A stretch of 64,000 nucleotides of DNA, taken from Candidatus Oxydemutator sp. (GTDB lineage: Bacteria > Pseudomonadota > Gammaproteobacteria > Poriferisulfidales > Oxydemutatoraceae). The notes beneath the pieces were generated by a model that saw only the letters and a program-made list of their open reading frames with translations, ran no database searches and was not told the origin of the DNA. Location: the NCBI GenBank assembly GCA_965203445.1, contig OZ241883.1:544001-608000 (forward strand), in the 5' to 3' direction. The translations under genes and the position numbers were made by a program. Position 1 is the stretch's first letter. Each line of letters opens with the position of its first letter. Shown piece by piece: positions 4,820 to 64,000 of this stretch.

Positions 4820-4837
4820 CAAGAACCGGAGAAAAGA

Positions 4838-7448: not shown

Positions 7449-7478
7449 CGGCCGGCAACGACCGATAACGACGGCGCC

Positions 7479-10071: not shown

Positions 10072-10114
10072 AGGCGCGCGCCTCGGCCCGGGCCCGAAGG
10101 ACGGGAACCCGCCG

Positions 10115-10591
10115 ATGAAAAAATTGGCGGCGGCGTTGATGATGACGTTAGGCGCGGGCGCGACCGGCGACACGTCGGAGCGCGGCTACGTCGCATGCCG
10201 GCAACAAGCGGCGGCGGCCTTCGATCTGCCGGATGATCTGGTGCAGGCCGTCAAGGAAGTCGAAAGCGGCGCGTCTCTCGGCGCGCCGATCAGCACCAAC
10301 CGCAACGGCACCGAAGACATAGGCTTGATGCAGATCAACAGTTCCTGGCTGCCGACCCTGGGCCGGCACGGCATCAGCAAAGAAGGACTGCTCGACACCT
10401 GCGTCAATCTCCACGTCGGCGCCTGGATCCTGCGCCAGGCGATTGACGACGCCGGCGGCGACGTCTGGGCCGGCGTCGGCGCCTATCACTCGCCGACCCC
10501 GGCGCGCCAGCGGCGTTATCGCACACTGATAGTGCAAAAGTTACAAAAAATCAGGGCGCGTGCGCTGAATCAGGGCGCGAGGAGACGGTAA
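10115..10591 (+). CDS. Lytic transglycosylase (SLT domain; IagB/R64-PilT/BfpH-like)
   Basis: Motifs AVKEVES (catalytic Glu), DIGLMQINSSW and VGAYHS; N-terminal signal peptide. Confidence 0.93.
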   Translation: MKKLAAALMMTLGAGATGDTSERGYVACRQQAAAAFDLPDDLVQAVKEVESGASLGAPISTNRNGTEDIGLMQINSSWLPTLGRHGISKEGLLDTCVNLHVGAWILRQAIDDAGGDVWAGVGAYHSPTPARQRRYRTLIVQKLQKIRARALNQGARRR

Positions 10592-24800: not shown

Positions 24801-25141
24801 TCCATCGCGTCCACCGCCGAGCGCGTCTCGCGCAGAATTTCCTCGACGTCGCTGTTCGGTTTCAGCTTCAACAACACCACCGAAGAACCTTCGAGGCTGG
24901 TCGAGCGGAGTTCGTCGACGTCGGCGAAGTCCTTGACCTCCTTCTCTATCGGTATCGTAAGCTGGCGTTCGCTCTCTATCGGCGGCGCGCCCTCGAACAC
25001 AGTGCGTATCTCGACCAGGTCTTTCTCGATGGTCGGAAACATTTCCTGCGGCATCGAACGCCACGACAAAACGCCGATGATGACCACCGCGGCCAACAGA
25101 AAATTGACGATGAGCGGATTCTTTATCGAAAATTCGGTCAT
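21884..25141 (-). CDS. RND-family efflux transporter permease subunit (AcrB/AcrD/AcrF superfamily)
   Basis: 1085 aa with 1+5+1+5 TM organisation; motifs LGMIVDDAIIITEN, GIIVNDSLILID and RARPILLTTVTT. Confidence 0.93.
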   Translation of the reverse strand: MTEFSIKNPLIVNFLLAAVVIIGVLSWRSMPQEMFPTIEKDLVEIRTVFEGAPPIESERQLTIPIEKEVKDFADVDELRSTSLEGSSVVLLKLKPNSDVEEILRETRSAVDAMDDLPQDAETPVIRRIKSNFPVLSVSVYGDVPEADLIENSKLVKRRLQKIAGVAAVAIAGEREWEVWVAVDPYEIAARGVSLAEIRAALAANLTDQPGGSLAAAEGDIQLRGVSAAPDVEALKQITIRTDADGGQLRIGDVAAVDLKLEMVETRARFNGRPSLNLVVTKDADASTTEIADDVKELITRLAPQLPPAVRVGYHSDLSDYVNTRLQTVFSSGLIGLVMLLTSLYLLLNFRVALITALGIPVSFLVAIICLKYAGFTVNMVSLFAFLIALGMIVDDAIIITENVYRHLEAGEPVMQAALDGTREVIAPVCASTLTTIAAFLPIFAIGGTMGQFVVVIPVVVSAALLGSLLEALLILPAHANLILRGRESRESDTPPRPLYEARRAPAADAEERRAPAATSGYWHQFLGRYRVYLEWAIQRRYLVSVVTICTLAVALTLAATRVPFQLFGKVEVGQFFVNIEAPNNYSIEESEQLSARIERELLATFDGAEHELEVLLTNIGLTLVDAETRRSKIGENYVQFVVTLTEPEPRGFIERFVTPLVSLDFGERGRRTRDTEDIISLMRERVERMPGVKRFSIARSEAGPAGSDVSVNLTGPELGILESYADEMAAFLASLEGVRDVRHDMEPGKLEFRYRLNEHGRRLGLTQRDVAEAVRTGYLGVETVHVNWGEERYPVRLIFDEDVRNDGGRLAELPITLADGRVIYFNEIADTSLDRGFNTLKRLDERRVATVSAEVDQSRATALQIYDALTRHFAPLYQNRVGYQMVFGGEKKQAADSFAGAYDAGVISLFLIFFILIILFRSLLDPLLVMLTIPFGLIGVIGGHLLLGYNLQFVSVIGILALSGIIVNDSLILIDCIKRMRKDGVARDTAVVRAGCRRARPILLTTVTTFLGVSPLIFFATGQTAFLSPMAISLGFGLVMATVLILIVLPCFYLVADDLKTMLVRGTWRGGATAASLSARGGTKE

Positions 25142-25221: not shown

Positions 25222-28200
25222 CTACTGAATCGGAAACGTCCGGCGCCGACCCTTGTTCTCTATCACGAAATATCGATCGGCGGACAACACCTCGCCGTCA
25301 AAGTCCACGTCCGCGTCCACCGCGTAATGGCCGGCCGCGGCCGCGGCGCGGTAGTCGCCCGCACCCAACGACGACAAGTTGTACACGCGTATCAATACTT
25401 CGTCCCGCTCATCAATCACGCCGTTTCGATCCACGTCGCCCGCGACCATCGCATACACGCCCGCCCCCACTGCAATCTGCCCGCCCCCGTGCGACTGCCC
25501 GACGCGGAAGTCCACGCAGTAGTCCGCCTCGCAATCGGCGCCCGTGGTCGCGGCCGCCGGCATCGCCGACATCACCGACAGATGGTTGCGGTGGTGGATC
25601 AGCACGTACAGGTCCTCCCCTTCGGACAGCTCCGCCTCAAAGCGCACGCCGCCCAATGACAGCGCGTCCGCCACCGACGACGCCGCCTCGTTTATCCCCG
25701 CGATGCGACCGTCGCTCAACAGCAGACCCGCGGCGCGACCGCCCGTCGGCGGCCGCGACGACGCGGCCGCGGTCGTGCTCTCGCCGGTGCGCAACTCCAC
25801 CAGCACCCAGTCCACTATCGTCGAGGTGACACTGGCCAGGCCGACCGCCGCGCCCGCGTGCGGCACCGTCGTCGTCACCGGGTGCCCCCACGGCAACGCG
25901 CCGTACGGCTGGCGCCTCGGCAACAAGCCCGCCAAGTCGCTCCTCATCCGACCGGCCCCGGCAAGCAACGCCCCCTGCAAAACCACTCGTGCGTCCACCA
26001 CTACGACCCTCTCGCTGAAAATGCCAACGTCCGCAAACGACGGCGTCCCCAGCTCCGCCAGATGGGTGCCGCAATTCGGGCAGCCCGTCAGCCTCAAACG
26101 AAACCGCTCGCGGCCCTCGTCCCCCCTGCCGTCGCTCGGCACGCCCACCTCTATCCTCGCCACGCCCGCCTCATTCAGCACCACGCTCCCGGTAAACGGC
26201 AGCGAAACCACCGAGCGCACGCCGGCGGCGCCACGCCCCTCTACGTGCACCGCGGCCAGGTCCTCGTGCGTCAAACCCTCGGACGCGGCGGCAATCTCAT
26301 AGTCCACGACCACCGCCCGATCACCGCCGCCACTCAACGCGATCGTGAACGTCGCGGTAGTGCTTTCGCTCACCGTCGCGGACGTCGCCGCCACCGTCAC
26401 CTGACTCAGTTCATTGGCCTCTATCGTCGTACGCGCAACGGTGCTCGGCACGCCTAAAACCACGCGCGCAGGCGCCCCCGTGAGCCTCGCGCCCGTCAAC
26501 GTCACCGCCAGCACCTCGGACAACTCGGGCTCGCCGTCCACGCGCACCCTCAACGAAAACGACGCGCTGACGGCGCCCGATTCGATGGCCACGCTGCTCG
26601 CAGTCACGCCGACAAAGTCGGCGGCGTCGACTTCGCCGCCACCCACCGACCAATCCCAACTCGCACGCACCCCCGGCGGCAAGGCCTGCGGCAAGCGCAC
26701 CACGTAACTCGCGGTGCCGCCTTCCGACACCGTCTCGCTGCCGGTGAGCGTCGGGGCAAGACTCACCGCCGGCTGCGCCTCCCGCTGCGACGTGCGACGC
26801 GCCGCCTCCGTGTCGGTAGCGCCGCCGAACACCAGCACCGGGTAATCAAACACGCTGCCGAAGTCCCACGGACTGTCGTCGTTCAAGTTGCCGTCGCCTA
26901 TCCGATCCAAGCCGTCCACGTTCAACTGATCCCAACCCGCATAGATCGTGCCCGCGGCCGTCGTCGGGACGCGCAACTCGCTCGACGTCTTCGAGGTGTC
27001 GTCCGAACTCGGCGCATTCGTTCCGCAGCAACGGCTCAAGCCGCTGCGCTCGGCGTCAAAATAACTCGACTCCACCACGGCGCCGACTACCCGGTTGCCT
27101 ATCAGACCGCCGGCCGTGGCCGTCCCCGTCGTTACCCCGACCGAGTAGCTGGCGCTGACCACCGACGCGCCGCCGGCTTCGCCCACCAGACCGCCCGCGT
27201 TGCTTTCCTCCGCATGCACCTCCACGTCGGCGTAACTCGCCACCAGCCCGCCGTAATGACCCCCTATCAAACCGCCCACTCCCGAGGCGCCGGATATGCG
27301 ACCGCCGATCACGTAACTCGCCGCCACCTTGCCCTCGTTGCGGCCCACCAGCGCACCGGTATAGGTGCTGCTGCGACCCAAGTCCCCTAAGGCCACCCGC
27401 GCGTTGCGCAAGCCCACGTTGCGGATCACGCCGTCGGCGCCGACGGCGCCGAACAAACCCACGTGATACCGCTGCCCGTCCCCGGCCATCGTCAGATTGC
27501 TGATGACGTGGCCGTTGCCTTCAAAAACGGCGCTGTAGGCATCCCCCGGAAGGTCTTCAAGCCTGACGCCCCCGCCTATCGGCGTCCAGTCCGGGATGTC
27601 CGACAAGTCCAGGTCGGCCGACAACTCGTAGCCGGTGCACGTTCTCGGACAGGTCTGCATCCCGTCGAAAACGGGAAACGCCGCAAAATAAGCGGCCCTG
27701 TTGGCATCGCTCACGCCCGCTATCCCGACACCGCCCAGGTCGTAGCGGATCGCCGCCAACTGCGACGTCGTCGCCACGTCTATCAAGGTGTCGCCGTCGT
27801 CGTTGTAGGCTATTCCGTCGCTGAACGCAATGGTGGTCCTGACGGAAACCGGCGCGCCCAGATCCACGCCACGCGCGGGCGCCCCCGTGAGCCGCGCGCC
27901 CGTCAACGTTACCACCAGCACCTCGGACAACTCGGACACGTCGTCATCGCGCACCTCCACCGAAAACGACGCGCTGACGGCGCCCGAGACGACGACCACG
28001 GTGCTTGCGGTCACGCCGACAAAGTCGGCGGCGTCGACGTCGCCGCCGCCCACCGACCAATCCCAACGCACGCTCACCCCCGGCGGCAAGGCCTGTGGCA
28101 AGCGCACCACGTAACTCGCGCTCTCGCCTTCCGACACCGTCGCGCTGCCGGTGAGCGTCGCCACAAGCCTCACCTTCGGCTGCGCCTCCTGCTGCGACGT

Positions 28201-58200: not shown

Positions 58201-61200
58201 CTCGTTGTCTCCCACCAGCGCACCTATAAACAAGCTATCACCACCCATTTCCACCCGCGCGTTGTGCAAGCCCACGTTGCGGATCACGCCGCCGGCGCCC
58301 ACCCTGCCGAACAAACCTATCTGCCACTCCCCGTCCCTGGCCACCCGCAAATTGCGGATGACGTGGCCGTTGCCTTCAAAAACGGCGGTGTAAGCATCCC
58401 CCGGCACGGCACGCGGAACCCCCCCGCCCAGCGGCGTCCAGCCTGGGCCCGGGGCCGGGTTCACACTGGACAGATCCAGGTCGGCCGACAACTCGTAGCC
58501 GGCGCACGTGCCCGGACAGGTCTGCTTCTCGTCGTAATGGGGAAACGCCGCCCGATAAGCCCGATAAGCGGCCTCGTTGGCACTGCTCACGCCCGCCAGC
58601 CCGGCACCGCCCAGGTCGTGGCGGATCATCGCCAACTGCGACGTCGTCGCCACCTCTATCAAGTTGTCGTCATCAAAGTCGTAGTCTATCTGGTCGCTCG
58701 TCTCGATCGTGGTCCTGACGGAAACCGGCACGCCCAAACTCACGTGGCGCGGCGCCCCGGTGAGCCTCGCGCCCGTCAACGTTACCACCAGCACCTCGGA
58801 CAACTCAGGCACGTCGTCATCGAACACTACCACCGAAAACGACGCGCTGACGGCGCCCGAGGCGATAACCACGCTGCCCGCGGTCGTGCCGACAAAGTCG
58901 TCGGCGCCGACGTCGTCGCCACCCACCGCCCAGCTCCAACTCGCGGTCACCCCCGCCGGCAAGACCAGCGGCAGACTCACCACGTAACTCGCGGTGCCGC
59001 CTTCCGACGTGGTCTCGCTGCCGACGAACGTCACCGCAAGAATTACCCGCGGCTGCGCCTGCTGCTGCGACGTGCGACGCATCGCCATAGTCTCGGTAGC
59101 GCCGCCGAACACCAGCACCGGGTAATCAAACACGCTGCCGAAGTCCCACGGCGCGTCGTCGTTGTAGTCGTCGTCGCCTCCCTGATCCACGCGATCCACG
59201 TTCAACTGGTCCCAACCCTCGTAGATGCCCGCGGCCGTGGTGGGGGCGTACAACTGGCTCGACCTCCTCGGGACGACGTTGTCCAGACCCCGCGCAAACG
59301 TTCCGCAGCAACTGCTCTGGCCGCTGCGCTCCTGGTCAAAATAACTCGACTGCACCAGGGCGCTGGCAGCCCCGCTCCCTATCAAACCGCCGATGCTGGA
59401 CACGCCCGGCGCCCCCGTCGTTTCCCCAACGGAGTAACTGGCGCTCACCACCGCCCCGAGACTGATTTCGCCTATCAGACCGCCCACCACGCTTTCCTCT
59501 GCATACACTTCCACGTCGGCGTAACCCGCCACCAGCCTGCCGTAATGAGCACCCGCCAAACCGCCCACCGCGGAGGCGCCGGATACGCGACCGCCACCGG
59601 CGTAACTCGCCGCCACTTCGCCCTGGTTGAATCCCACCAGCGCGCCTACAAAATAACCGCCGTGCACCCGTGCGTTACGCAAGCCCACGTTGCGGATGGT
59701 GCCGCCGGCACCCACGGCGCCGAACAAACCTATCTGATACCACCCGTCCCTAGCCACCCGCAAATTGCGAATGACGTGGCCGTTGCCTTCAAAAACGGCG
59801 GTGTAGGCATCCCCCGGGAAGGTTGCAGGCCCGACCCCTCCGCCTATCGGCGTCCAGCCCGGGCGCGGGGCCGGGTTCACGCCGGACAGATCCAGGTCGG
59901 CCGACAACTCGTAGCCGGCGCACGTGCCGGGACAGGTGCGCACCTCGTTGTACAGGGGAAACGCCGCCAGATACGCGGCCCTGTTCGCGTCGCCCACGAC
60001 GCCCGCCAGCCCGGCACCGCCCAGGTCGTGGCGGATCGCCGCCAACTGCGACGTCGTCGCCACCTCTATCAAGTTGTCGTCATCAAAGTCGTAGTCTATC
60101 TCGTCGCTCACCTCGATCGTGGTCCTGACCGAAAGCGGCACGCCCAGACTCACGCGGCGCGGCGCCCCGGTGATCCTCGCGCCCGTCAACGTTACCACCA
60201 GTACCTCGGAAAACTCGGGCACGTCGTCATCGAGCACCCCGACCGAAAACGACGCGCTGCTAGCGCCGGAGCCGATGACTACGGCGCCGGTCGTGTTGAC
60301 AAAGTCGGCGGCGTCGGCTTCGCCGCCACCCACCGTCCAATCCCAGCTCGCGGTCACCCCTCTCGGCAGGATCACCGGCAGACTCACCACGTAACTCGCG
60401 GTGCCGCCTTCCGGCACGGTAACGCTGCCGGTGAACGCCGGCACAAGAATTATCCGCGGCTGCGCTTCCTGCTGCGACGTGCGACGTATCGCCATAGTCT
60501 CGGTAGCGCCACCGAACACCAACACCGGGTAATCAAACACGCCGCCGAAATCCCACGGCGCGTCGTCGTTCAAATCGCCGTCGTCTCCCCGATCCACGTC
60601 GTCCACGTTCAACTTGTCCCAACCCGCATAGATGGTGCCCGTCGCCGTAGTGGGACCAATCAACTCGCCTGACGTCTTCGAGGTGTTGTCCGGACTCGGC
60701 ACGTTCGCTCCACAGCAACGGCTCCGGCCGCTGCTCTCGGCGTCAAAATAACTCGACTCCAGCGTGGCGCCGACCACCCTGTTCCCTATCAAGCCACCGA
60801 CCAGACCGGCCCCCGTCGTTGCCCCGATGGAGTAACTGGCGCTCACTACCGACGCGCCACCGCTTGCGCCCACCAGACCGCCCACGGTACCCAATCCATG
60901 CACTTCCACGTCGGCGTAACTCGCCACCACTCTGCCGAAATGAGACCCTATCAAGCCGCCCACCGAAAACGCGCCGGATACGCGACCGCCACTGACGTAA
61001 CTCGCCGCCACTTTGCCCCGGTTGGAACCCACCAGCGCGCCTATATAAGTACCATTATTACCCACGCTCACCCGCGCGTTGCGCAAACCCACGTTGCGGA
61101 TCACGCCGACGTCGCTGACGACGCCGAACAAACCCATGCTGTACCACGGGCGATCATTCCTGGTTATCGTCAGATCGCTGATAACGCGGCCGTTGCCCTC

Positions 61201-64000
61201 AAAAACGGCGCTGTAAGGATTCCTCAAACGGTGTGTGAGCGTGGTGGCCTCTCCGCCTATCGGCTTCCAGTTCAAGCCGGACAGATCCAGGTCGGCCGAC
61301 AACTCGTAGCCGGTGCACGTGCCCGGACAGGTCTGCTTCTCGTCGTAATGGGGAAACGCCGCCCGATAAGCCCGATAAGCGGCCTCGTTGGCACTGCTCA
61401 CGCCCGCCAGCCCGGCACCGCCCAGGTCGTGGCCGATCGCCGCCAACTGCGACGTCGTCGCCACCTCTATCAAGGTGTCGTCATCAAAGTCGTAGTCCAT
61501 CTGGTCGCTCGTCTTGATCGTGGTCCTGACGGAAACCGGCACGCCCAAACTCACGTGGCGCGGCGCCCCGGTGAGCCTCGCGCCCGTCAACGTTACCACC
61601 AGCACCTCGGACAACTCAGGCACGTCGTCATCGAACACCCTGACCGAAAACGACGCGCTGCTCGCGCCGGAGCCGATGGCCACGCTGCCAGTCGTGCCGA
61701 CAAAGTCGTCGGCGTCGACGTCGCCGCCGCCCACCGCCCAATCCCAACGCGCGGTCACCCCCGCCGGCAAGACCAGCGGCAGACTCACCACGTAACTCGC
61801 GGTGCCGCCTTCCGACACCGTCTCGCTGCCGGTGAGCGTCGCCGCAAGAATTACCCGCGGCTGCGCCTGCTGCTGCGACGTGCGACGCATCGCCATAGTC
61901 TCGGTAGCGCCGCCGAACACCAGCACCGGGTAATCAAACACGCTGCCGAAGTCCCACGGCGCGTCGTCGTTGTAGTCGTCGTCGCCTCCCTGATCCACGC
62001 GATCCACGTTCAACTGGTCCCAACCCTCGTAGATGCCCGCGGCCGTGGTGGGGGCGTACAACTGGCTCGACCTCCTCGGGACGACGTTGTCCAGACCCCG
62101 CGCAAACGTTCCGCAGCAACTGCTCTGGCCGCTGCGCTCCTGGTCAAAATAACTCGACTGCACCAGGGCGCTGGCAGCCCCGCTCCCTATCAAACCGCCG
62201 ATGCTGGACACGCCCGGCGCCCCCGTCGTTTCCCCAACGGAGTAACTGGCGCTCACCACCGCCCCGAGACTGATTTCGCCTATCAGACCGCCCACCACGC
62301 TTTCCTCTGCATACACTTCCACGTCGGCGTAACCCGCCACCAGCCTGCCGTAATGAGCACCCGCCAAACCGCCCACCGCGGAGGCGCCGGATACGCGACC
62401 GCCACCGGCGTAACTCGCCGCCACTTCGCCCTGGTTGAATCCCACCAGCGCGCCTACAAAATAACCGCCGTGCACCCGTGCGTTACGCAAGCCCACGTTG
62501 CGGATGGTGCCGCCGGCACCCACGGCGCCGAACAAACCTATCTGATACCACCCGTCCCTGGCCACCCGCAAATTGCGAATGACGTGGCCGTTGCCTTCAA
62601 AAACGGCGGTGTAGGTATCCCCCGGAAAGGCCGCAGGCCCGACCCCCCCGCCTATCGGCGTCCAGCCCGGGCGCGGGGCCGGGTTCACGCCGGACAGGTC
62701 CAGGTCGGCCGACAACTCGTAGCCGGCGCACGTGCCGGGACAGGTGCGCACCCCGTTGTACAGGGGAAACGCCGCCAGATACGCGGCCCTGTTCGCGTCG
62801 CCCACGACGCCCGCCAGCCCGGCACCGCCCAGGTCGTGGCGGATCGCCGCCAACTGCGACGTCGTCGCCACCTCTATCAAGTTGTCGTCATCAAAGTCGT
62901 AATCTATCCGGTCGCTCACCTCGATCGTGGTCCTGACCGAAAGCGGCACGCCCAGACTCACGCGACGCGGCGCCCCCGTGATCCTCGCGCCCGTCAACGT
63001 TACCACCAGTACCTCGGAAAACTCGGGCACGTCGTCATCGAGCACCCCGACCGAAAACGACGCGCTGACGGCGCCGGAGGCGATGGCCACGCTGCCGGTC
63101 GTGTTGACGAAGTCGGCGACGTCGGCTTCGCCGCCACCCACCGTCCAATCCCAACGCGCGCGCACTCCCGTCGGCAAGACCAGCGGCAGACTCACCACGT
63201 AACTCGCGGTGCCGCCTTCCGACGTGGTCTCGCTGCCGGCAAGCATCGGCGTAAGAATCACCTGCTGCGCCTGCTGCTGCGACGTGCGACGTATCGCCAT
63301 AGTCTCGGTAGCGCCACCGAACACCAACACCGGGTAATCAAACACGCCGCCGAAATCCCACGGCGCGTCGTCGTTCAAATCGCCGTCGTCTCCCCGATCC
63401 ACGTCGTCCACGTTCAACTTGTCCCAACCCGCATAGATGGTGCCCGTCGCCGTAGTGGGACCAATCAACTCGCCTGACGTCTTCGAGGTGTTGTCCGGAC
63501 TCGGCACGTTCGCTCCACAGCAACGGCTCCGGCCGCTGCTCTCGGCGTCAAAATAACTCGACTCCAGCGTGGCGCCGACCACCCTGTTCCCTATCAAGCC
63601 ACCGACCAGACCGGCCCCCGTCGTTGCCCCGATGGAGTAACTGGCGCTCACTACCGACGCGCCACCGCTTGCGCCCACCAGACCGCCCACGGTACCCAAT
63701 CCATGCACTTCCACGTCGGCGTAACTCGCCACCACTCTGCCGAAATGAGACCCTATCAAGCCGCCCACCGAAAACGCGCCGGATACGCGACCGCCACTGA
63801 CGTAACTCGCCGCCACTTTGCCCCGGTTGGAACCCACCAGCGCGCCTATATAAGTGCTATTACTACCCACGCTCACCTGACCCACGCTCACCCGCGCGTT
63901 GCGCAAACCCACGTTGCGGATCACGCCGACGTCGCTGACGACGCCGAACAAACCCATGCTGTACCACGGGCGATCATTCCTGGTTATCGTCAGATTGCTG
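25222..64000 (-). CDS. Giant repetitive surface/secreted protein (>12,900 aa, 5' end outside the window): tandem GLUG-type/Calx-beta-like modules and a dockerin-like C-terminus
   Basis: No stop codon in the frame from 64000 to the TAG at 25222-25224. The Met at 63957 is internal: upstream codons read SNLTITRNDRPWYS, matching another module. Repeated motifs GLFG, GALVG, VGGLIG, GGLVG, SYFD, PWDFG...YPVL, VSEG...DF...DDD.PE.SE and DYDxDDDxLIxV. Confidence 0.93.
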   Translation of the reverse strand, partial: SNLTITRNDRPWYSMGLFGVVSDVGVIRNVGLRNARVSVGQVSVGSNSTYIGALVGSNRGKVAASYVSGGRVSGAFSVGGLIGSHFGRVVASYADVEVHGLGTVGGLVGASGGASVVSASYSIGATTGAGLVGGLIGNRVVGATLESSYFDAESSGRSRCCGANVPSPDNTSKTSGELIGPTTATGTIYAGWDKLNVDDVDRGDDGDLNDDAPWDFGGVFDYPVLVFGGATETMAIRRTSQQQAQQVILTPMLAGSETTSEGGTASYVVSLPLVLPTGVRARWDWTVGGGEADVADFVNTTGSVAIASGAVSASFSVGVLDDDVPEFSEVLVVTLTGARITGAPRRVSLGVPLSVRTTIEVSDRIDYDFDDDNLIEVATTSQLAAIRHDLGGAGLAGVVGDANRAAYLAAFPLYNGVRTCPGTCAGYELSADLDLSGVNPAPRPGWTPIGGGVGPAAFPGDTYTAVFEGNGHVIRNLRVARDGWYQIGLFGAVGAGGTIRNVGLRNARVHGGYFVGALVGFNQGEVAASYAGGGRVSGASAVGGLAGAHYGRLVAGYADVEVYAEESVVGGLIGEISLGAVVSASYSVGETTGAPGVSSIGGLIGSGAASALVQSSYFDQERSGQSSCCGTFARGLDNVVPRRSSQLYAPTTAAGIYEGWDQLNVDRVDQGGDDDYNDDAPWDFGSVFDYPVLVFGGATETMAMRRTSQQQAQPRVILAATLTGSETVSEGGTASYVVSLPLVLPAGVTARWDWAVGGGDVDADDFVGTTGSVAIGSGASSASFSVRVFDDDVPELSEVLVVTLTGARLTGAPRHVSLGVPVSVRTTIKTSDQMDYDFDDDTLIEVATTSQLAAIGHDLGGAGLAGVSSANEAAYRAYRAAFPHYDEKQTCPGTCTGYELSADLDLSGLNWKPIGGEATTLTHRLRNPYSAVFEGNGRVISDLTITRNDRPWYSMGLFGVVSDVGVIRNVGLRNARVSVGNNGTYIGALVGSNRGKVAASYVSGGRVSGAFSVGGLIGSHFGRVVASYADVEVHGLGTVGGLVGASGGASVVSASYSIGATTGAGLVGGLIGNRVVGATLESSYFDAESSGRSRCCGANVPSPDNTSKTSGELIGPTTATGTIYAGWDKLNVDDVDRGDDGDLNDDAPWDFGGVFDYPVLVFGGATETMAIRRTSQQEAQPRIILVPAFTGSVTVPEGGTASYVVSLPVILPRGVTASWDWTVGGGEADAADFVNTTGAVVIGSGASSASFSVGVLDDDVPEFSEVLVVTLTGARITGAPRRVSLGVPLSVRTTIEVSDEIDYDFDDDNLIEVATTSQLAAIRHDLGGAGLAGVVGDANRAAYLAAFPLYNEVRTCPGTCAGYELSADLDLSGVNPAPRPGWTPIGGGVGPATFPGDAYTAVFEGNGHVIRNLRVARDGWYQIGLFGAVGAGGTIRNVGLRNARVHGGYFVGALVGFNQGEVAASYAGGGRVSGASAVGGLAGAHYGRLVAGYADVEVYAEESVVGGLIGEISLGAVVSASYSVGETTGAPGVSSIGGLIGSGAASALVQSSYFDQERSGQSSCCGTFARGLDNVVPRRSSQLYAPTTAAGIYEGWDQLNVDRVDQGGDDDYNDDAPWDFGSVFDYPVLVFGGATETMAMRRTSQQQAQPRVILAVTFVGSETTSEGGTASYVVSLPLVLPAGVTASWSWAVGGDDVGADDFVGTTAGSVVIASGAVSASFSVVVFDDDVPELSEVLVVTLTGARLTGAPRHVSLGVPVSVRTTIETSDQIDYDFDDDNLIEVATTSQLAMIRHDLGGAGLAGVSSANEAAYRAYRAAFPHYDEKQTCPGTCAGYELSADLDLSSVNPAPGPGWTPLGGGVPRAVPGDAYTAVFEGNGHVIRNLRVARDGEWQIGLFGRVGAGGVIRNVGLHNARVEMGGDSLFIGALVGDNEGEVLASYVIGGRVSGNAGVGGLIGGHYAGRLVASYADVEVRADGANVGGLIGEAGGASVVSASYSVGRVTGIYPIGGLIGNRVAGAVVESSYFDQERSRQGGCCKPRASHQLRAPTTAVGTLYAGWDKLHVDDVDQGDDGDYNDDAPWDFGTVFDYPVLVFGGATETVAMRRTSQQEAQPRIILAPAFTGSVTVPEGGTASYVVSLPVILPRGVTASWDWTVGGGEADAADFVATTGAVVIGSGASSASFSVRVFDDDVPELSEVLVVTLTGARLTGAPRRVSLGVPLSVRTTIEASDEIDYDVDGDDLIQVATTSRLAAIRYDLGGAGLAGVSSANRAAYLAAFPFFDVEQTCPGTCTGYELSADLDLAGEDWTPLGGAGTSDYYTAVFEGNGHVISNVTIRSANNGAARLDNVGLFGAVGAGGIIRNVGLDNVHTDVSGASMGAGALAGYNAGKVAACYVVGGGGQVRGGSALGGLVGGLDGGVVIASYADVPVHQRSPGRSVGGLIGAVANGGIVSASYALSRLTRDGDGLQGSPSGGLVGDYLSGTLQTSYFDKQRSGQSACCGSNVPTTDNAPRTSVQLRAPTAAAGTIYEGWDRLNVDGVDHNGDYNDDAPWDFGSTFDYPVLVFGGATDTQAARRTSQQRALEVTVAATLAGSETVSEGGTASYVVRLPMVLPAGVSASWSWAVGGGDVSADDFVGTTAGSVVIASGAVSASFSVRVFDDDVPELSEVMVVTLTGVRLAGAPAHVGLGVPLSVRTTIEVSDEIDYDFDDDNLIEVATTSQLSAIRYDLGGAGLAGVSSANEAAYRAYQAAFPVYDEARTCPGTCKGYELAADLDLSSVNPAPGTGWTPIGGLAQGFFFVYPEEVGYAAVFEGNGHVIRNLRMEYRRLFSRDGWSGTGLFGAVGANGRIRNVGLRNVLMNSGSSFREVGALVGYNRGKVAASYVIGGRVSLFSAGGGLIGVNDGEVVASYADVEVIGSRVGGLVGLVYFGSSVKASYSVGKVTNTLDRSSSSGGLIGARGDGGYIGPGYVDSSYFDSQRSGEGRCCGPKRSRDLRIPTTAAGTIYAGWDKLDVDGVDQNDDNNLNDDSPWDFGSVFDYPVLVFGGATETRQARRTSQQEAQPKVNLAATITGSATVSEGEVASFVVRLPEPLPPGVIMRWGWVVGGGEVDTADFVGATTGNAVIASGADRTSFSVRVRDDDEPEFSETLVATLSNVRLTGAPVRGVDLGVPVSAVTTIEVSDEIDYNGDDDTLIDVETTSQLAAIRYDLGGVGLAGVSDANRDAYLAAFPFFGKQETCPRTCTGYELVNDLDLSSVNPAPGPGWTPIGGGVMLHDLPGDAYTAVFEGNGHVIRNMRVARAGQWYRVGLFGAVGAAGTIRNVGLRDARVSLGSNSEFTGALVGRNEGTVAASYVSGGRISGVWFVGGLIGGHYGRLVASYADVEVQAGESNVGGLAGEVGGASVVSASYSVGRTAGASPVGGLVGNRVVGAVVESSYFDAERSGQRDCCGLNAPDPDDARQTSSELRAPTTAAGTIYAGWDRLNVDRVDQNDDDDYNDDAPWDFGGAFDYPVLVFGGATETMAMRRTSQQETQPRASLAATLTGSVTVSEGESAGYVVSLPQALPPGVSVRWDWSVGGDEVTVADFVGVTGSVVVASGAVSASFSVRIFDDAIPELSEVLVVTLSNARLTGAPARNVDLGAPVSVKTTIEFSDVPDYDVDDDTLIEVATTSQLAAIRYDLGGAGIAGVSTANRAAYRVAFPLFGVFDEIRSCPSTCTGYELAADLDLSSVEPHPAPGWTPLGGGIRSEDLVGDSSVDFYTAVFEGNGHVISNLRVVRMGRWYFTGLFGAVSASGVIRNVGLRNARVEVRFDNVGGSLYTGALAGDNRGQVAASYVIGGRISGTWHVGGLVGRNLGRVVASYADVAVHADGNSVGGLVGEAGGASVVRASYSVGRPTGDSPGGLMGIRNVGAVVESSYFDAERSGQDRCCGSNVRDSDDARQTSHGLRTPTTAAGTIYAGWDQLNVDGVDQEGDGDYNDDAPWDFGSAFDYPVLVFGGATETRLARRTSQRETQPQVGLAAALTGSATVAEGEVASYVVSLPVILPTGVTASWNWTVGGGEADIADFVGTTGIVAIGSGASSASFSVEVRDDDAPELSEALVVTLASARLTGAPQYVRLGVPASVMTIIELSDGTGYDDDNDTLIDVATTSQLAAIRYDLGGVGIAGVVGTANRAAYFAAFPFFDEKRTCPRTCTGYELANDLDLSSVEPAPGAGWTPLGGGIPDDNYSVGYYTAVFEGNGHVISNLRMNRSGQWFYMGLFGAVGADGRIRNVGLHNARVSLGRDADHVGALVGTSEGGVAASYVSGGRISGGAFVGGLLGSHYGGLVASYADVRVHADESNVGGLVGATGFASVVSASYSVGRTTGGLPSGGLIGNMAAGTVVWSSYYEAGRSGQSACCGFRAPDPDNTSKTSGQLRAPTMAAGTIYEGWDQLNVDGVARRGDDDLNDDAPWDFGSVFDYPVLVFGGATETMAMRRTLQREAQPKASLAATLAGSATVSEGESASYVVRLPQALPAGVRVRWDWSVGGGDVDAADFVGVTASTVAIESGAVSASFSVTIFDDDEPEFSEVLVVTLTGARITGAPARGVDLGAPVSVRTMIEASDGTTYNGDGDTLIDVETTSQLAAIRYDLGGVGLAGVGKTNKSAYYAAFPFFDEKRTCPSTCTGYELSADLDLSDVADWTPIGGGGTPDSYTAVFEGNGHVISNLTMTGDGQRYRVGLFGAVGADGVIRNVGLRNARVDLGRSSTYTGALVGRNEGKVAASYVSGGRVSGAFGVGGLIGGHYGSLVASYADVEVQAEGSNAGGLVGEAGGASVVSASYSVGVTTGTSTVGGLIGRKHAAAALKSSYFDAERSGLSRCCGTNVPTTDTAPRTSSQLRVPTTTAGTIYAGWDQLDVDGVDRRRDGDYNDDAPWDFGSVFEYPILVFGGATETSAMRRASQREAQPKVSLAPTLAGSATVSEGSTASYVVGLPEALPPGASVRWDWEVGGDQVSAADFVTTTGTVAIASGAVSASFSVGVRDDDEPELSEVIVVTLSDARLTGAPARGVDLGAPVSVRTMIEASDQRDYDDDNDGLIDVATTSQLAAIGHDLGGVGIAGVSSANRAAYYAAFPVFGETQTCPRTCTGYELSADLDLSGIPDWTPLGGGSGVESPVDYYTAVFEGNGHVISNLTMTGDGQRYHVGLFGAVGADGAIRNVGLRNARVDLGRSSTYTGALVGRNEGTVAASYVSGGRISGASGVGGLIGGHYGGLVASYADVGVHAEESNAGGLVGVAGGASVVSASYSVGATTGSGTVGGLIGNRVAGAVVESSYFDAERSGLSRCCGTNAPSPDDTSKTSSELRVPTTAAGTIYAGWDQLNVDGLDRGRDGDLNDDAPWDFGSVFDYPVLVFGGSTGTVQARRTSQQEAQPKVRLVATLAGSATVSEGESASYVVRLPQALPPGVSVRWDWSVGGGDVDADDFVGVTASTVVVVSGAVSASFSVEVRDDDVSELSEVLVVTLTGARLTGAPARGVDLGAPVSVRTTIAFSDGIAYNDDGDTLIDVATTSQLAAIGHDLGGVGIAGVSSANRAAYFAAFPVFDGTKTCPRTCTGYELSADLDLSDIADWTPIGGGVRLEDLPGDAYSAVFEGNGHVISNLTMTGDGQRYHVGLFGAVGADGVIRNVGLRNARVALGDLGRSSTYTGALVGRNEGKVAASYVIGGRISGASGVGGLIGGHYGGLVASYADVGVHAEGSNAGGLVGEAGGASVVSASYSVGVTTGTATAGGLIGNRVVGAVVESSYFDAERSGLSRCCGTNAPSPDDTSKTSSQLRVPTTTAGTIYAGWDQLNVDGLDRIGDGNLNDDAPWDFGTVFEYPVLVFGGSTETMQARRTLQREAQPKANFAATLVGSTTVSEGERASYVVRLPEPLPPGVIVRWGWVVGGEVDTADFVGATTGNAVIASGADSTSFSVRVRDDDEPELPEALVVTLSNARLTGLPARGVSLGVPVSVVTTIEASDEIDYDFDDDTLIEVETTSQLAMIRHDLGGAGLAGVSDANRDAYLAAFPFFGKQETCPRTCTGYELVNDLDLSSVNPAPGPGWTPIGGGVMLHDLPGDAYTAVFEGNGHVIRNMRVARAGQWYRVGLFGAVGAAGTIRNVGLRDARVSLGSNSEFTGALVGRNEGTVAASYVSGGRISGVWFVGGLIGGHYGRLVASYADVEVQAGESNVGGLAGEVGGASVVSASYSVGRTAGASPVGGLVGNRVVGAVVESSYFDAERSGQRDCCGLNVPDPDDARQTSSELRAPTTAAGTIYAGWDRLNVDRVDQNDDDDYNDDAPWDFGGAFDYPVLVFGGATETEAMRRTSQQETQPRVSLAATLTGSVTVSEGESASYVVSLPQALPPGVSVRWDWSVGGDEVTVADFVGVTGSVVVASGAVSASFSVGVFDDAIPEFSEVLVVTLASARLTGAPARGVDLGVPVSVKTTIEFSDALDYDVDDDNLIEVATTSQLAAIRYDLDGAGLAGVSSANRAAYLAAFPLFDEFDQVQTCPGTCAGYELSADLDLSSVEPHPGTGWTPLGGGVEVQDFPGDYYTAVFEGNGHVISNLRVARDEGWYQMGLFGAVSASGTIRNVGLRNARVEVAASGFGQSPFVGALVGDNRGQVAVSYVIGGRVSGGFGVGGLIGNNAGRVVASYADVAVHAFSTVGGLVGQADLASVVSASYSVGRVTGFFSPIGGLIGSGFRNSVVESSYFDKERGVQSDCCGSKTSHQLRAPTTAAGTIYAGWDKLNVDRVDQGDDGDYNDDAPWDFGTAFDYPVLVFGGATETRLARRTSQRETQPPVGLAATLTGSATVAEGEVASYVVSLPVILPAGVTASWNWMVGGDEVDADDFVGTTGIVAIGSGASSASFSVRVFDDDAPEFPEVLVVTLASARLAGAPQDVTVGAPASVSTIIEFSDGSDYNDDNDTLIDVATTSRLAAIRYDLGGVGPAGVSDANRAAYYAAFPFFDEKRTCPSTCTGYELSGDLDLSGIPDWTPIGGGSGVESPPDSYTAVFEGNGHVISNLTMTGDGQWYHVGLFGAVGADGVIRNVGLRNARVALGALGRSSTYTGALVGRNEGKVAASYVIGGRISGASRVGGLIGGHYGSLVASYADVEVHAEGSNAGGLVGEAGGASVVNASYSVGVTTGTSTVGGLIGRKHAAAALESSYFDSERSGLSRCCGTNVPTTDTAPRTSSQLRVPTTATGTIYAGWDKLNVDNVDRRRDGNYNDDAPWDFGSVFDYPVLVFGGATETMAMRRASQREAQPAVSFAPTLAGSATVSEGGTATYVVSLPGALPLETTASWDWSVGGEVDAADFVGVTAGSVAIVSGAVSASFSLRVRDDDEPELSEVLVVALASARLTGAPQYVRLGVPASVMTIIELSDGTDYDDDNDTLIDVATTSQLAAIRYDLGGAGIAGVVGKANRLAYFAAFPVFDEKQTCPRTCTGYELAADLDLSSVEPAPGAGWTPLGGGIPDNNYSVDYYTAVFEGNGHVISNLRMNRSGQWFYMGLFGAVGADGRIRNVGLHNARVSLGGNSEHVGALVGTNEGAVAASYVSGGRISGALYIGGLIGGHYGSLVASYADVEVRASASNAGGLVGATDFASVVSASYSVGRTTGGLPSGGLIGNIAAGTVVWSSYYDAERSGQSACCGFGAPDPDNTSKTSSQLRAPTTATGTIYAGWDQLNVDGVDQGRDDDLNDDSPWDFGSVFDYPVLVFGGATDTESARRTLQREAQPKASLAATLTGSATVSEGESASYVVRLPQALPAGVTVSWDWSVGGGDVDAADFVGVTASTVAIESGAVSASFSVEVRDDDEPELSEVIVVTLTGARLTGAPARGVDLGAPVSVRTIIEASDEIDYDDDNDGLIDVATTSRLAAIRYDLGGVGLAGVSDANRAAYYAAFPFFDEKRTCPSTCTGYELSGDLDLSDVADWTPIGGGVGLQDLPGDAYTAVFEGNGHVISNLRVATDGQRYHVGLFGAVGAAGVIRNVGLRNARVDLGRSSTYTGALVGRNEGKVAASYVIGGRISGASGVGGLIGGHYGRLVASYADVEVHAEGSNAGGLAGEAGGASVVSASYSVGVTTGTATAGGLIGNRVVGAVVESSYFDAERSGLSRCCGTNVPTTDTAPRTSSQLRVPTTTAGTIYAGWDQLNVDGLDRIGDGNLNDDAPWDFGSVFDYPVLVFGGSTETVQARRTSQREAQPAVSLAPTLAGSETVSEGGTASYVVRLPQALPPGVRARWDWSVGGGEVDADDFVGVTASSVAIESGAVSASFSLRVRVDDEPELSEVLVVTLTGARLTGAPAHVSLGVPLSVRTTIEASGAKDYDVDDDNLIEVATTSQLAAIRYDLGGVGLAGVSGDANRAAYLAAFPVFDVEQICPGTCTGYELSADLDLSGIPDWTPIGGGSGVEYPVDSYTAVFEGNGRVVSNLTMTGDGQRYHVGLFGAVGADGAIRNVGLRNARVVLGRSSTYTGALVGRNEGTVAASYVSGGRISGASRVGGLIGGHYGGLVASYADVEVHAEGSNAGGLVGEAGGASVVSASYSVGATTGSGTVGGLIGNRVVGAVVESSYFDAERSGLSRCCGTNAPSPDDTSKTSSELRVPTTTAGTIYAGWDQLNVDGLDRGRDGDLNDDAPWDFGSVFDYPVLVFGGATDTEAARRTLQREAQPAVSLAPTLAGSETVSEGGTASYVVRLPQALPPGVRASWDWSVGGGEVDADDFVDAITGTVVIVSGAVSASFSLRVRVDGELEFSEVLVVTLTGARLTGAPAHVSVGVPVSVRTTIEGSGEIDYDLDNDTLIEVATTSQLAMIRYDLDGVGLAGVSGDANRDAYLDAFPVFDVEQTCPTTCTGYELSADLDLSSVEPAPGPGWTPLGGGVSPLLDEDYYTAVFEGNGHVISNMRMTRDGRLSHAGLFGAVSAVGVIRNVGLRDARVSLGNHSTYIGALVGRNEGKVAASYVSGGRISGVWAVGGLIGGNFGRLVASYADVEVHAGGANVGGLVGEAGGASVVSASYSVGEPTGATAGGLIGQRLAGAVVESSYFDTGRSLQASCCGTEPGDTDNVAPRTSSELRVPTTTAGTIYAGWDQLNVDGLDRGRDGNLNDDSPWDFGSVFDYPVLVFGGATDTEAARRTSQREAQPAVSLAPTLTGSETVSEGGTASYVVRLPQALPPGVRAHWDWSVGGGEVDADDFIGATTGNVAIVSGAVSASFSVAVRDDDAPEFSEVLVVTLTGARLTGAPARVSLGVPLSVRTTIEASDETIYNGDGDTLIDVETTSQLAAIRYDLGGVGPAGVSSANKAAYYAAFPFFDEKRTCPSTCTGYELSADLDLSGIPDWTPIGGGSGVEAPVDYYTAVFEGNGRVVSNLTMTGDGQRYHVGLFGAVGAGGVIRNVGLRNARVVLGRSSTYTGALVGRNEGKVAASYVIGGRVSGASRVGGLIGGHYGGLVASYADVEVHAEESNAGGLVGEAGAASVVSASYSVGVTTGTTTAGGLIGNRVVGAVVESSYFDAERSGLSRCCGTNAPSPDDTSKTSSELRVPTTTAGTIYAGWDQLNVDGLDRGRDGNLNDDSPWDFGSVFDYPVLVFGGATDTEAARRTSQREAQPAVSLAPTLTGSETVSEGGTASYVVRLPQALPPGVRARWDWSVGGGEVDADDFVGTTAGNVVIVSGAVSASFSLRVRDDGMPELSEVLVVTLTGARLTGAPAHVSLGVPLSVRTIIEASDETIYNGDGDTLIDVETTSQLAAIRYDLGGVGPAGVSKTNKSAYYAAFPFFDEKRTCPSTCTGYELSNDLDLSGIPDWTPLGGGVGLQDLPGDAYSAIFEGNGHVISNLRVTRSGSWYHVGLFGAVGAAGVIRNVGLRNARVVLGRSSTYTGALVGRNEGKVAASYVSGGRISGASGVGGLIGGHYGRLVASYADVEVHAEESNAGGLVGEAGGASVVSASYSVGVTTGTATAGGLIGNRVAGAVVESSYFDAERSGLSRCCGTNAPSPDDTSKTSSELRVPTTTAGTIYAGWDQLNVDGLDQGDNGDLNDDSPWDFGSVFDYPVLVFGGSTETVQARRTSQREAQPAVSLAPTLAGSETVSEGGTASYVVRLPQALPPGVRASWDWSVGGGEADAADFVGVTASSVVIESGAVSASFSVGVFDDDAPEFSEVLVVTLTGARLTGAPARGVDLGMPVSVRTIIEASDETIYNGDGDTLIDVETTSQLAAIRYDLGGVGPAGVSKTNKSAYYAAFPFFDEKRTCPSTCTGYELSNDLDLSGIPDWTPLGGGVGLQDLPGDAYSAIFEGNGHVISNLRVTRSGSWYHVGLFGAVGAAGVIRNVGLRNARMNLGRSSTYTGALVGRNEGKVAASYVSGGRVSGASRVGGLIGGHYGRLVASYADVEVHAEGSNAGGLVGEAGGASVVSASYSVGVTTGTATAGGLIGNRVVGAVVESSYFDAERSGLSRCCGTNAPSPDDTSKTSSELRVPTTTAGTIYAGWDQLDVDGVDRGRDGDLNDDAPWDFGSVFDYPVLVFGGATDTEVARRTLQREAQPAVSLAPTLAGSETVSEGGTASYVVRLPQALPPGVRARWDWSVGGGEVDAADFVGVTASSVAIESGAVSASFSVGVRDDDAPEFSEVLVVTLTGARLTGAPARGVDLGMPVSVRTIIEASDETIYNGDGDTLIDVETTSQLAAIRYDLGGVGLAGVSSANRAAYYAAFPFFDEKRTCPSTCTGYELSADLDLDSIADWTPIGGGSGVEYPVDYYTAVFEGNGRVISNLRVTGDGQRYHVGLFGAVGADGAIRNVGLRNARVDLGRSSTYTGALVGRNEGKVAASYVSGGRVSGASRVGGLIGGHYGSLVASYADVEVHAEESNAGGLVGEAGGASVVSASYSVGVTTGTATAGGLIGNRVVGAVVESSYFDAERSGLSRCCGTNAPSSDDTSKTSSELRVPTTAAGTIYAGWDQLNVDGLDRGRDGDLNDDAPWDFGSVFEYPVLVFGGSTETMQARRTLQREAQPAVSLAPTLAGSETVSEGGTASYVVSLPQALPPGVRASWDWSVGGGEVDADDFVSVTASSVVIESGAVSASFSVGVRDDDEPEFSEVLVVALTGARLTGAPARGVDLGMPVSVRTIIEASDETIYNGDGDTLIDVETTSQLAAIRYDLGGVGPAGVSSANRAAYYAAFPFFDEKRTCPGTCTGYELSGDLDLDSIADWTPIGGGSGVESPVDYYTAVFEGNGRVISNLRVTGDGQRYHVGLFGAVSAVGTIRNVGLRNARVVLGHSSTYTGALVGRNEGKVAASYVIGGRISGASGVGGLIGGHYGGLVASYADVEVHAEESNAGGLVGEAGGASVVSASYSVGVTTGTATAGGLIGNRVVGAVVESSYFDAERSGLSRCCGTNAPSSDDTSKTSSELRVPTTTAGTIYAGWDQLDVDGEDRGRDGNLNDDSPWDFGSVFDYPVLVFGGATDTEAARRTSQREAQPAVSLAPTLAGSETVSEGGTASYVVRLPQALPPGVRARWDWSVGGGEVDADDFVGVTASSVAIESGTVSASFSLRVRVDGEPELSEVLVVTLTGARLTGAPAHVSLGVPLSVRTTIEVSGAKDYDVDDDNLIEVATTSQLAAIRYDLGGVGLAGVSGDANRAAYLAAFPVFDVEQICPGTCTGYELSADLDLSGIPDWTPLGGGSGVESPVDYYTAVFEGNGHVISNLTMTGDGQRYHVGLFGAVGAAGAIRNVGLRNARVDLGRSSTYTGALVGRNEGKVAASYVSGGRISGASGVGGLIGGHYGGLVASYADVEVHAEGSNAGGLAGEAGGASVVSASYSVGATTGSGTLGGLIGNRVVGAVVESSYFDAERSGLSRCCGTNAPSPDDTSKTSSELRVPTTTAGTIYAGWDQLNVDGLDRGRDGNLNDDAPWDFGSVFDYPVLVFGGSTGTVQARRTSQQEAQPKVRLVATLTGSATVSEGESASYVVRLPQALPPGVSVRWDWSVGGGDVDAADFVGVTASTVVVVSGAVSASFSVEVRDDDVSELSEVLVVTLTGARLTGAPARGVDLGAPVSVRTTIAFSDGIAYNDDGDTLIDVATTSQLAAIRYDLGGVGIAGVSDANRAAYFAAFPVFDGMQTCPRTCTGYELSADLDLSDIPDWTPIGGGVRLEDLPGDAYSAVFEGNGHVISNLTMAGDGQRYHVGLFGAVGADGVIRNVGLRNARVALGDLGRSSTYTGALVGRNEGKVAASYVIGGRISGASGVGGLIGGHYGGLVASYADVEVHAEESNAGGLVGEAGGASVVSASYSVGVTTGTATAGGLIGNRVVGAVVESSYFDAERSGLSRCCGTNAPSSDDTSKTSSELRVPTTAAGTIYAGWDQLNVDGLDRIGDGNLNDDSPWDFGSVFDYPVLVFGGATDTEAARRTSQREAQPAVSLAPTLTGSETVSEGGTASYVVRLPQALPPGVRASWDWSVGGGEVDAADFVGVTASSVAIESGAVSASFSLRVRVDGEPELSEVLAVTLTGARLTGAPARVVLGVPSTVARTTIEANELSQVTVAATSATVSESTTATFTIALSGGGDRAVVVDYEIAAASEGLTHEDLAAVHVEGRGAAGVRSVVSLPFTGSVVLNEAGVARIEVGVPSDGRGDEGRERFRLRLTGCPNCGTHLAELGTPSFADVGIFSERVVVVDARVVLQGALLAGAGRMRSDLAGLLPRRQPYGALPWGHPVTTTVPHAGAAVGLASVTSTIVDWVLVELRTGESTTAAASSRPPTGGRAAGLLLSDGRIAGINEAASSVADALSLGGVRFEAELSEGEDLYVLIHHRNHLSVMSAMPAAATTGADCEADYCVDFRVGQSHGGGQIAVGAGVYAMVAGDVDRNGVIDERDEVLIRVYNLSSLGAGDYRAAAAAGHYAVDADVDFDGEVLSADRYFVIENKGRRRTFPIQ
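26420..64000 (-). repeat. Tandem array of 27 modules of ~1.38-1.44 kb (the first truncated by the window edge)
   Basis: The PWDFG marker (plus strand tcccacgg) was counted 27 times between ~26864 and ~63356; mean spacing ~1404 bp. Confidence 0.9.

Follow-up and report, generated by a model that had tools for sequence, protein, structure and literature searches.

The window analysed here (a stretch of 64,000 nucleotides, positions 544,001-608,000 of contig OZ241883.1 in the assembly GCA_965203445.1 of Candidatus Oxydemutator sp.; genome coordinates are obtained by adding 544,000 to window positions) contains on its minus strand the 3' four-fifths of a giant gene, whose product is built of tandem modules, each made of a helical cap, a beta-helix of the GLUG type and a Calx-beta domain. 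The frame between positions 25222 and 63999 consists of 12,925 stop-free codons closed by a TAG at 25222-25224, is open at its 5' end, and the window part of the gene (25222-64000) runs on beyond the window end; since random DNA of 66% GC content carries ~0.024 stops per codon, i.e., by simple arithmetic, one stop every ~40 codons, a chance origin of such a frame is excluded. The genome is a single closed contig of 2,378,814 bp, rated 100% complete with a contamination of 0.19%. The 5' end, still open in a preliminary description made from the letters of the window alone, could be reached by following the frame to genome position 617,614 (16,130 codons from stop to stop), where an in-frame GTG was found at genome 617,585-617,587 together with a signal-peptide-like N-terminus; from this GTG the whole gene, 48.4 kb long, codes for 16,121 residues with 33 modules, that is, for an acidic protein (pI 4.4) of 1,648 kDa (1.65 MDa), with 140 cysteines in conserved pairs.

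The order of the parts along the protein is signal peptide, two PKD domains, 33 modules of ~467 residues, an extra Calx-like unit and a C-terminal domain (CTD) with a dockerin-like EF-hand pair. The portion beyond the window (genome 608,001-617,587, minus strand) holds, from the GTG start, the signal-like N-terminus, the two K319L-like PKD domains (genome about 616,700-617,500; PF22352, E 1.2e-27) and six more complete modules. Within the window, 26 complete modules of 460-480 residues each, delimited by alignment and by a module profile, occupy 26419-62901; ahead of them the window edge cuts through a further module, of which the C-terminal two-thirds lie inside (62902-64000, placed by its motif positions); the frame of more than 38.7 kb with 27 modules of ~468 residues announced in the preliminary description is thus found as described. 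Between the last module and the CTD lies the extra Calx-like or Ig-like unit (26005-26418, recognized from sequence, borders approximate), the equivalent of which in the paralogue P0001 matches the Pfam Calx-beta family with an E-value of 1.8e-18; the CTD itself, ~260 residues long, extends over 25225-26007. The longest exact repeat inside the giant gene is only 718 bp, and the array should therefore be resolvable by accurate long reads; the giant gene is real and intact. Promoter and terminator scans at both of its ends returned nothing usable.

The regularity of the array is apparent from the recurrence of short motifs, namely GLFG and PWDFG (27 occurrences each in the window), FEGNG, CPxTCxGYEL and YPVL (26 each) and SYFD (25), with a distance of 461-480 residues from one PWDFG to the next. 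These motifs had been listed in the preliminary description and recur as stated there, whereas the strict DYDxDDD motif of the same list is present only ten times, a relaxed form, LI[EDQ]V[AE]TTS, being found 26 times. Pairwise identity among the window modules ranges from 62 to 96% (mean 74%); the distant pairs 1/3, 7/13, 9/16 and 11/25 are 88-96% identical, their neighbours 62-75%, and the C-terminal modules 17-26 resemble each other at 78-95%, a pattern that points to duplications of multi-module blocks and to a probably recent growth of the array at the 3' end.

The structure of the module was modelled with AlphaFold2 (AF2) on an alignment of 13 of the 26 window modules and 27 translated loci from other phyla, yielding a model with a predicted local distance difference test score (pLDDT) of 87.1 and a predicted TM-score (pTM) of 0.84. 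In this model of a 469-residue module (61495-62901, minus strand), a three-helix N-terminal cap carrying the DxDxD-LIE loop and a CxxxC motif (62728-62901) is followed by a right-handed beta-helix (residues ~59-255; 62137-62727), a C-terminal cap with the CC and PWDFG..YPVL motifs (61906-62136), a linker helix (61864-61905) and a beta-sandwich of the Calx-beta type (61495-61863). The top Foldseek match against the PDB is 3n6z (E 2.5e-6, covering 338 columns of a 339-residue target, with a moderate TM-score on the target, TMt, of 0.46), and the next matches are the Calx-beta domains of NCX1 (CBD1) and CALX, with TMt values of 0.77-0.81 (2dpk, E 2.9e-6, TMt 0.77; 3ead, TMt 0.81); the Calx-beta domain of integrin beta4 was also matched. 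At the level of the fold, the GLUG and Calx-beta domains named in the preliminary description are therefore upheld, and its proposal that every module carries a solenoid, at variance with adhesins built of Ig repeats, is borne out by the domain analysis.

From Pfam alone less is obtained: at a threshold of E<=0.1, the family Glug (PF07581) recognizes 13 of the 26 window modules, the best of them with 1.1e-4, while module 1 lacks a match even at E<=10; at the same threshold Calx-beta (PF03160) recognizes six of the 26 (best 0.0059), module 1 scoring 15.3 bits (E 0.021) and so missing the gathering score of 27 bits. When the module profile is compared with the sequences of the PDB, the best match is the IgA1 protease of S. 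pneumoniae, with an E-value of just 0.28; a relative, P0005, matches Peptidase_M26_N (PF05342) at 9.5e-9.

The residues conserved among the window modules include those of three invariant GGLxG rungs (G177 G178 L179 G181; G204 G205 L206 G208; G235 G236 L237 G239) and, in the DDDxPExSE stretch of the Calx-beta domain, D425, E429 and E432, which form an acidic cluster taken here as a putative calcium site. The cap begins with the DxDxD-LIE loop, which in relatives reads DxDxDGLIE..L..L and which we take, from its pattern, to resemble an EF-hand or dockerin loop. When the 155 full modules of the genome are compared, GGLxG turns and an ASY ladder prove nearly fixed, and the most variable positions are found in the loops 87-98 and 114-120 and in the stretch after each GGLxG turn; this distribution fits a conserved scaffold with a changing face. 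Between window modules, the median ratio of nonsynonymous to synonymous substitution rates (dN/dS) is 0.68, at a median dS of 0.27.

The N-terminus of the giant protein, VRSLLLLLGLSVAATVSA/QE, has the appearance of a Sec-type signal when judged by eye from the sequence, which points to a likely Sec-dependent export across the inner membrane; the paired cysteines and the acidic pI are likewise in line with an extracytoplasmic protein. Pfam and NCBIfam scans of the N-terminus returned PKD-type families only, with no two-partner secretion (TPS) domain, and scans of the C-terminus returned Dockerin_1 alone, with neither a repeats-in-toxin (RTX) family nor a C-terminal beta-barrel; the protein fails the tests for type I and for type V secretion. 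The CTD, delimited by alignments, is composed of a beta-rich part (with the motifs LQGA, DWVLVELR and HHRNHL) and a dockerin-like part, in which the EF-hand loop pair GDVDRNGVIDERDE and DADVDFDGEVLSADR (25261-25443, minus strand) was recognized by Pfam and by a PDB profile: the giant protein itself reaches 21.1 bits with Dockerin_1 (PF00404), against a cut-off of 22.9, eight of ten paralogue CTDs match this family (best E 9.3e-6), and the PDB profile match is 4uyp_B (E 1.8e-5, in two stretches). In the ESM Atlas the CTD was found in hypothetical proteins only, some of them with Dockerin_1 (score 0.90), and an AF2 run on the CTD with ten paralogues gave a pLDDT of 40, so that a fold was not obtained. 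The last ~260-300 residues are common to at least ten giant open reading frames (ORFs) of the genome, and because it is shared by so many secreted paralogues the CTD looks like a tether or a sorting tag. Other giant ORFs (genome 1679020-1712808, 1094169-1117187 and 1186153-1194978) close instead with a Gly-rich stretch followed by a hydrophobic helix and finally an Arg-rich tail, an arrangement reminiscent of GlyGly-CTERM or PEP-CTERM sorting signals; the giant proteins would therefore use at least two kinds of C-terminal tag.

The gene is one of a large set. A hidden Markov model of the module, run over the genome, identifies 155 full copies in 16 ORFs, which sum to 91,967 codons or ~11.6% of the genome; if ORFs with any profile match are considered, including cap-plus-helix variants and Calx-only arrays, 24 ORFs cover 428,778 bp, that is, 18.0% of the genome. 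Six module genes lie head to tail on one strand in a 159-kb cluster (genome 569,222-727,874), with stop-to-stop frames of 16,130, 9,081, 10,540, 3,521, 9,139 and 4,326 codons. Four of the six are contiguous in one reading frame (645-728 kb) and divided only by single TAGs. Stop-codon recoding was considered for them and rejected, because each TAG has a CTD before it and, after it, a conserved ~75-nt spacer and the beginning of a new signal peptide, as expected of distinct genes in tandem. A frame of 4,409 codons with eight full modules (genome 793573-806802, minus strand) starts in the middle of a module and has no signal peptide, and may be a truncated or frameshifted member of the family. 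No frame of the genome is longer than one of 17,496 codons (genome 838791-891281, minus strand), which has the same dockerin-like CTD and a signal-like N-terminus but no match to the module profile.

A further feature of some of these genes is found at their 5' ends. Between an ATG and the in-frame GTG of the giant gene lies a run of 27 G on the coding strand (genome 617,587-617,613); the ATG, immediately 5' of the run, is out of frame at this tract length and runs into a TAG. In the next gene upstream a run of 25 G is found and the ATG is in frame, while three tandem paralogues have, at the same place and in frame, ATG GGG GGG GTG. The genome contains 13 runs of G or C of at least 13 nt, five of which (13-27 nt) are at the 5' ends of module genes, the giant gene included. 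Among this genome and 30 relatives, G/C runs of at least 18 nt are present in 14 of the 31 genomes, some at contig ends, and their carriage follows the genera (five of five genomes in one genus, none of five in another), on which account a trait of the lineage seems a better explanation of such runs than an isolated error. Taken together, the tracts suggest slipped-strand phase variation, with each 5' tract as a candidate switch of its module gene. Eight further G/C tracts, 18-28 nt long, lie away from module genes (tract scan; genome 81736-81758, 359212-359231, 1459668, 1480509, 1824504 and 1918062, with a facing pair, 41 nt apart, at 1381142-1381166 and 1381208-1381235). Two of them are located just within the 5' ends of ORFs of 286 and 158 residues that have no Pfam family; a guess that these ORFs with an internal poly-G might code for glycosyltransferases was dropped for lack of a Pfam match.

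Outside this genome, the module profile retrieves 50,662 cluster representatives at E<=0.001, of which 8,490 remain at E<=1e-30. In the majority of matches only positions 1-246 or 1-330 are covered, the proteins having 1,200-7,800 residues and up to 36 matched stretches. Three of the representatives are identical to paralogues of this genome, and other full-module ones are 47-80% identical, which indicates that related organisms share the whole architecture, an occurrence elsewhere that the preliminary description had left to be looked for. The best 120 relatives listed all lack a source name; PF07581 is present in 76 of them, and Calx-beta, fn3 or cadherin-like domains in others. A search of species-representative genomes yielded 132 stretches at 28-42% identity, distributed over 75 loci, of which only two extend over the Calx part; the record titles of these loci mention Dehalococcoidia, Chloroflexota, SAR202, Acidobacteria, Latescibacterota, Candidatus Poriferisocius, Pseudomonadales and others. 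From these profile matches the cap-plus-helix unit is, as far as can be read, a very large family of uncultured bacteria, largely known from sponge-type metagenome-assembled genomes (MAGs) of several phyla. Of 18 genomes from the same bacterial family, 14 contain module matches, with open frames of up to 15,193 residues; three genomes of the same genus (1.6-1.8 Mb) have weak matches only, and for this reason the great expansion seems specific to this species among the genomes searched. No paper on this module family was found in the literature, although supplements might list such proteins.

As for the habitat, sequencing runs were represented by short-read-type contigs (Logan) of four runs; no RNA run was listed among those with matching sequence. 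A run labelled 'sponge metagenome' contributes 33 contigs on a compared stretch of 20 kb, 16 of them at 99% identity or more, and two runs of one sample contain about half of the sampled words; a sponge-type setting is modestly supported. The suspicion of a host-associated life, voiced in the preliminary description, thus gains indirect support, from the relatives in sponge-type MAGs and from the near-identical pieces in this run. Contigs of two runs of one sample lack 3 nt at genome 602116 (window 58116), an in-frame length variant within a module.

The features described above are best combined, with somewhat better than even confidence, in the picture of an exported, calcium-stiffened, multivalent surface fibre or adhesin, whose location, ligand and route of export are inferences. 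After export, calcium would fill the loop of the cap, the acidic cluster of Calx-beta and the dockerin loops, turning the polypeptide into a rigid chain; assuming a typical ~10 nm per module, 33 modules would form a rod or beaded fibre of a few hundred nanometres. Such a fibre would display 33 slightly differing beta-helix faces, suited to multivalent binding to the host matrix, to host cells or to other bacteria, while the common CTD would tether or sort all members of the family; the organism would hold a repertoire of genes, and the homopolymer tracts at five of the 5' ends would probably toggle individual fibres. A binding role is favoured because of the variation of turns and loops, the dN/dS of 0.68 and the precedent of the IgA1 protease of S. 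pneumoniae, whose beta-helix domain binds the Fab of IgA1 (PMC7695701) and which is the only functional precedent for this class of helix.

A number of observations weigh against this picture. With Glug, Calx-beta and Dockerin_1, most of the sequence matches stay under the Pfam cut-offs, and the TM-score with 3n6z is just moderate. Relaxed constraint or codon bias, instead of diversifying selection, could account for the dN/dS of 0.68, and the 1.48 obtained for 'hypervariable' columns carries no weight, since these columns had been picked for their variability and the argument is circular. The dockerin-like end is without a known partner, cohesin (PF00963) having no match at E<=0.01 in the 100%-complete genome, and the profile TIGR01843 (type_I_hlyD) likewise has no match in the genome. 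On the side of the reads, no contig of the four runs bridges a module or the poly-G tract of the giant gene; the contigs stop on both sides of this tract, so that neither an ON/OFF state nor heterogeneity is visible, and, homopolymer lengths being unreliable, the tract length in the assembly may be off by a base. In two runs of one sample, contig joints skip 1,405 and 2,838 nt; the sides of these joints are short (22-33 letters) and the joints probably stem from paralogous modules, copy-number variants being the other possibility.

The export route is a further difficulty, a folded 1.65-MDa rod being an awkward substrate for type II secretion. One of the three secretins of the genome is encoded in the window, in a divergent cluster on the plus strand (1923-10591) composed of the secretin (1923-3497), a T2SSE ATPase (GspE, 5341-7053), a T2SSF protein (GspF, 7479-8627), a pseudopilin (9082-10071) and an SLT transglycosylase (10115-10591), and in three genomes of another genus the orthologue of this secretin lies ~15 kb from listed module matches or giant-gene clusters. 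The hypothesis of a dedicated secretin system was rejected, since among 20 relatives six have both modules and secretin, four modules only, five the secretin only and five neither, with no association; the proximity of secretin and giant gene is treated as shared gene order, not as functional evidence.

Alternative roles of the protein may be weighed on the same evidence. Instead of an adhesin, the fibres might form a protective coat, a dense and variable layer directed against host phagocytes, grazers or phages, with variation serving evasion; this is possible, if unlikely. The very large genome investment (18%), the single C-terminal tether domain common to many paralogues and the high amino-acid change between modules all agree with a coat, as do the homopolymer tracts, which are typical of evasion (contingency) loci. 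The present data do not separate a coat from an adhesin, and both roles could coexist; the sole functional precedent of the helix class, however, is ligand binding. That each beta-helix is instead a lyase- or hydrolase-like unit, the whole forming an array of enzymes that digests the glycans of the host matrix, is improbable. The right-handed beta-helix is indeed the fold of many polysaccharide lyases and depolymerases, and the giant proteins of Omnitrophota have been tied to carbohydrate degradation (West-Roberts et al. 2023, bioRxiv 10.1101/2023.11.21.568195); however, Pfam and NCBIfam scans of the modules gave no carbohydrate-active enzyme family, and the columns that stay invariant from phylum to phylum hold Gly, Leu, Trp, Pro, Phe, Cys and one Glu of the cap, structural positions with no catalytic set on the helix face, for which reasons an enzymatic array is poorly supported. 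The top structural match, moreover, is a small non-catalytic GLUG helix.

It is hardly credible that the array is an artefact of assembly, or a decaying or selfishly expanding repeat devoid of function. Repeat arrays are prone to misassembly, the dN/dS is fairly high, the assembled ATG is out of frame and the short-read contigs are fragmented, with the module-skipping joints mentioned above; yet 48 kb run without one stop in a closed single-contig assembly whose longest exact repeat in the gene is short, the modules have diverged while keeping many invariant columns, and fifteen further full-module ORFs of the genome are also open. The same architecture recurs in proteins of other assemblies at 47-80% identity, and frames comparable in length, up to the 15,193 residues given above, are open in relatives of the family.

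The favoured picture of a calcium-stiffened fibre can be pushed further, to a switchable repertoire of giant fibres that would be a megadalton counterpart of antigenic-variation families, combined with mimicry of the sponge matrix and spread across phyla; in this extended form it is speculative and decidedly unlikely to hold as a whole. About a sixth of a streamlined genome would then be devoted to interchangeable beta-helix/Calx-beta fibres, with hypermutable G/C tracts of 13-27 nt toggling the genes; the rods, rich in Calx-beta, would insert themselves into the matrix of the sponge aggregation factor or imitate it, and the cells would be accepted as residents and not eaten; and the spread of the module among unrelated phyla of sponge-type symbionts would amount to a shared 'residency' device. 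Matrix mimicry is an attractive idea, by analogy, because the sponge aggregation factor is itself reported to be rich in Calx-beta domains (PMC5400394, PMC11670116).

In comparison with known systems, the closest relatives of the module by fold are the GLUG helices of BACOVA_03286 of Bacteroides ovatus (PDB 3n6z) and of the N-terminal domain of the S. pneumoniae IgA1 protease (6xja/6xjb), small right-handed beta-helices with one GGLxG turn per rung, as here. The entry 3n6z, best fold match of the module, is annotated as 'putative IgA1 protease', and the IgA1 protease is also the best, non-significant, match of the module among PDB sequences. These proteins have a single helix, on a protease or alone; in the giant protein the helix is present 33 times, each copy being provided with a helical cap with a calcium loop and with a Calx-beta spacer, and there is no protease domain. 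The well-known giant calcium-dependent adhesins of Gram-negative bacteria, LapA, SiiE and the ice-binding adhesin of Marinomonas primoryensis, are type I substrates with RTX repeats, no Sec signal, Ig-like extenders and a ligand-binding tip. The giant protein shares with them its megadalton size, its acidic character, a calcium-binding tandem-repeat design and, as the present reading would have it, the likely shape of a long surface fibre; unlike them, it has a signal-like N-terminus, no RTX match, no type_I_hlyD gene in its genome and a solenoid in every repeat.

In Omnitrophota, 'dockerin-type' giant proteins with EF-hand/dockerin-like calcium motifs have been described, for which a role in attachment was proposed and near whose genes a secretin/GspE/GspF locus is found (bioRxiv 10.1101/2023.11.21.568195). 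The present case is similar, an uncultured bacterium with dockerin-like calcium motifs and a locus of the same type near its giant genes; the Omnitrophota proteins differ in their CBM35-like barrels and thrombospondin type 3 repeats, in the phylum and in the predatory lifestyle proposed, and here the association with the secretin locus is unsupported. Consecutive genes for very large extracellular proteins, Giant1-5, reportedly make up 6% of the 1.5-Mb genome of the symbiont Apilactobacillus kunkeei (PMC12863079); this is a Gram-positive organism with proteins of 3,000-8,000 residues, whereas the genes discussed here take up 18% of 2.38 Mb and their largest module-bearing product has 16,121 residues, the two being compared by size and genome share, not by fold. 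Giant proteins of marine host-associated bacteria are already in print (bioRxiv 10.1101/2025.03.06.641946).

Both the component domains and giant repeat adhesins as a class were known before; the novelty lies in a Sec-type protein, failing the type I and type V tests, that strings together 33 copies of the composite module, in the scale of the repertoire and in the 5' homopolymer tracts. Metagenome assemblies usually lose or break giant repeat proteins, and the closed genome shows one of them intact, which with its 16,121 residues is among the largest intact bacterial proteins; it also shows how far a bacterium with a small genome has gone, with 155 copies of one composite module and 24 ORFs over 18% of 2.38 Mb. 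No Pfam model covers the cap-plus-helix unit beyond the short GLUG motif. This module is a strong candidate for a shared host-interaction device, given its more than 50,000 clusters and their concentration in uncultured MAGs of sponge-microbiome phyla, and, if the 5' tracts do switch the genes, contingency-locus biology, known from pathogens, would be extended to a symbiont of this kind.

As regards the immediate surroundings of the giant gene, upstream of the cluster are genes for a Mur ligase, YaaA, PmbA/TldD and an Hsp70-family protein and none for AcrA, and the hypothesis that the cluster was inserted between acrA and acrB was thus rejected. A gene for an AcrB-type pump of the resistance-nodulation-division (RND) class, located at 21884-25141 of the window and not accompanied by an AcrA-like gene, begins 80 nt past the stop of the giant gene, on the same (minus) strand.

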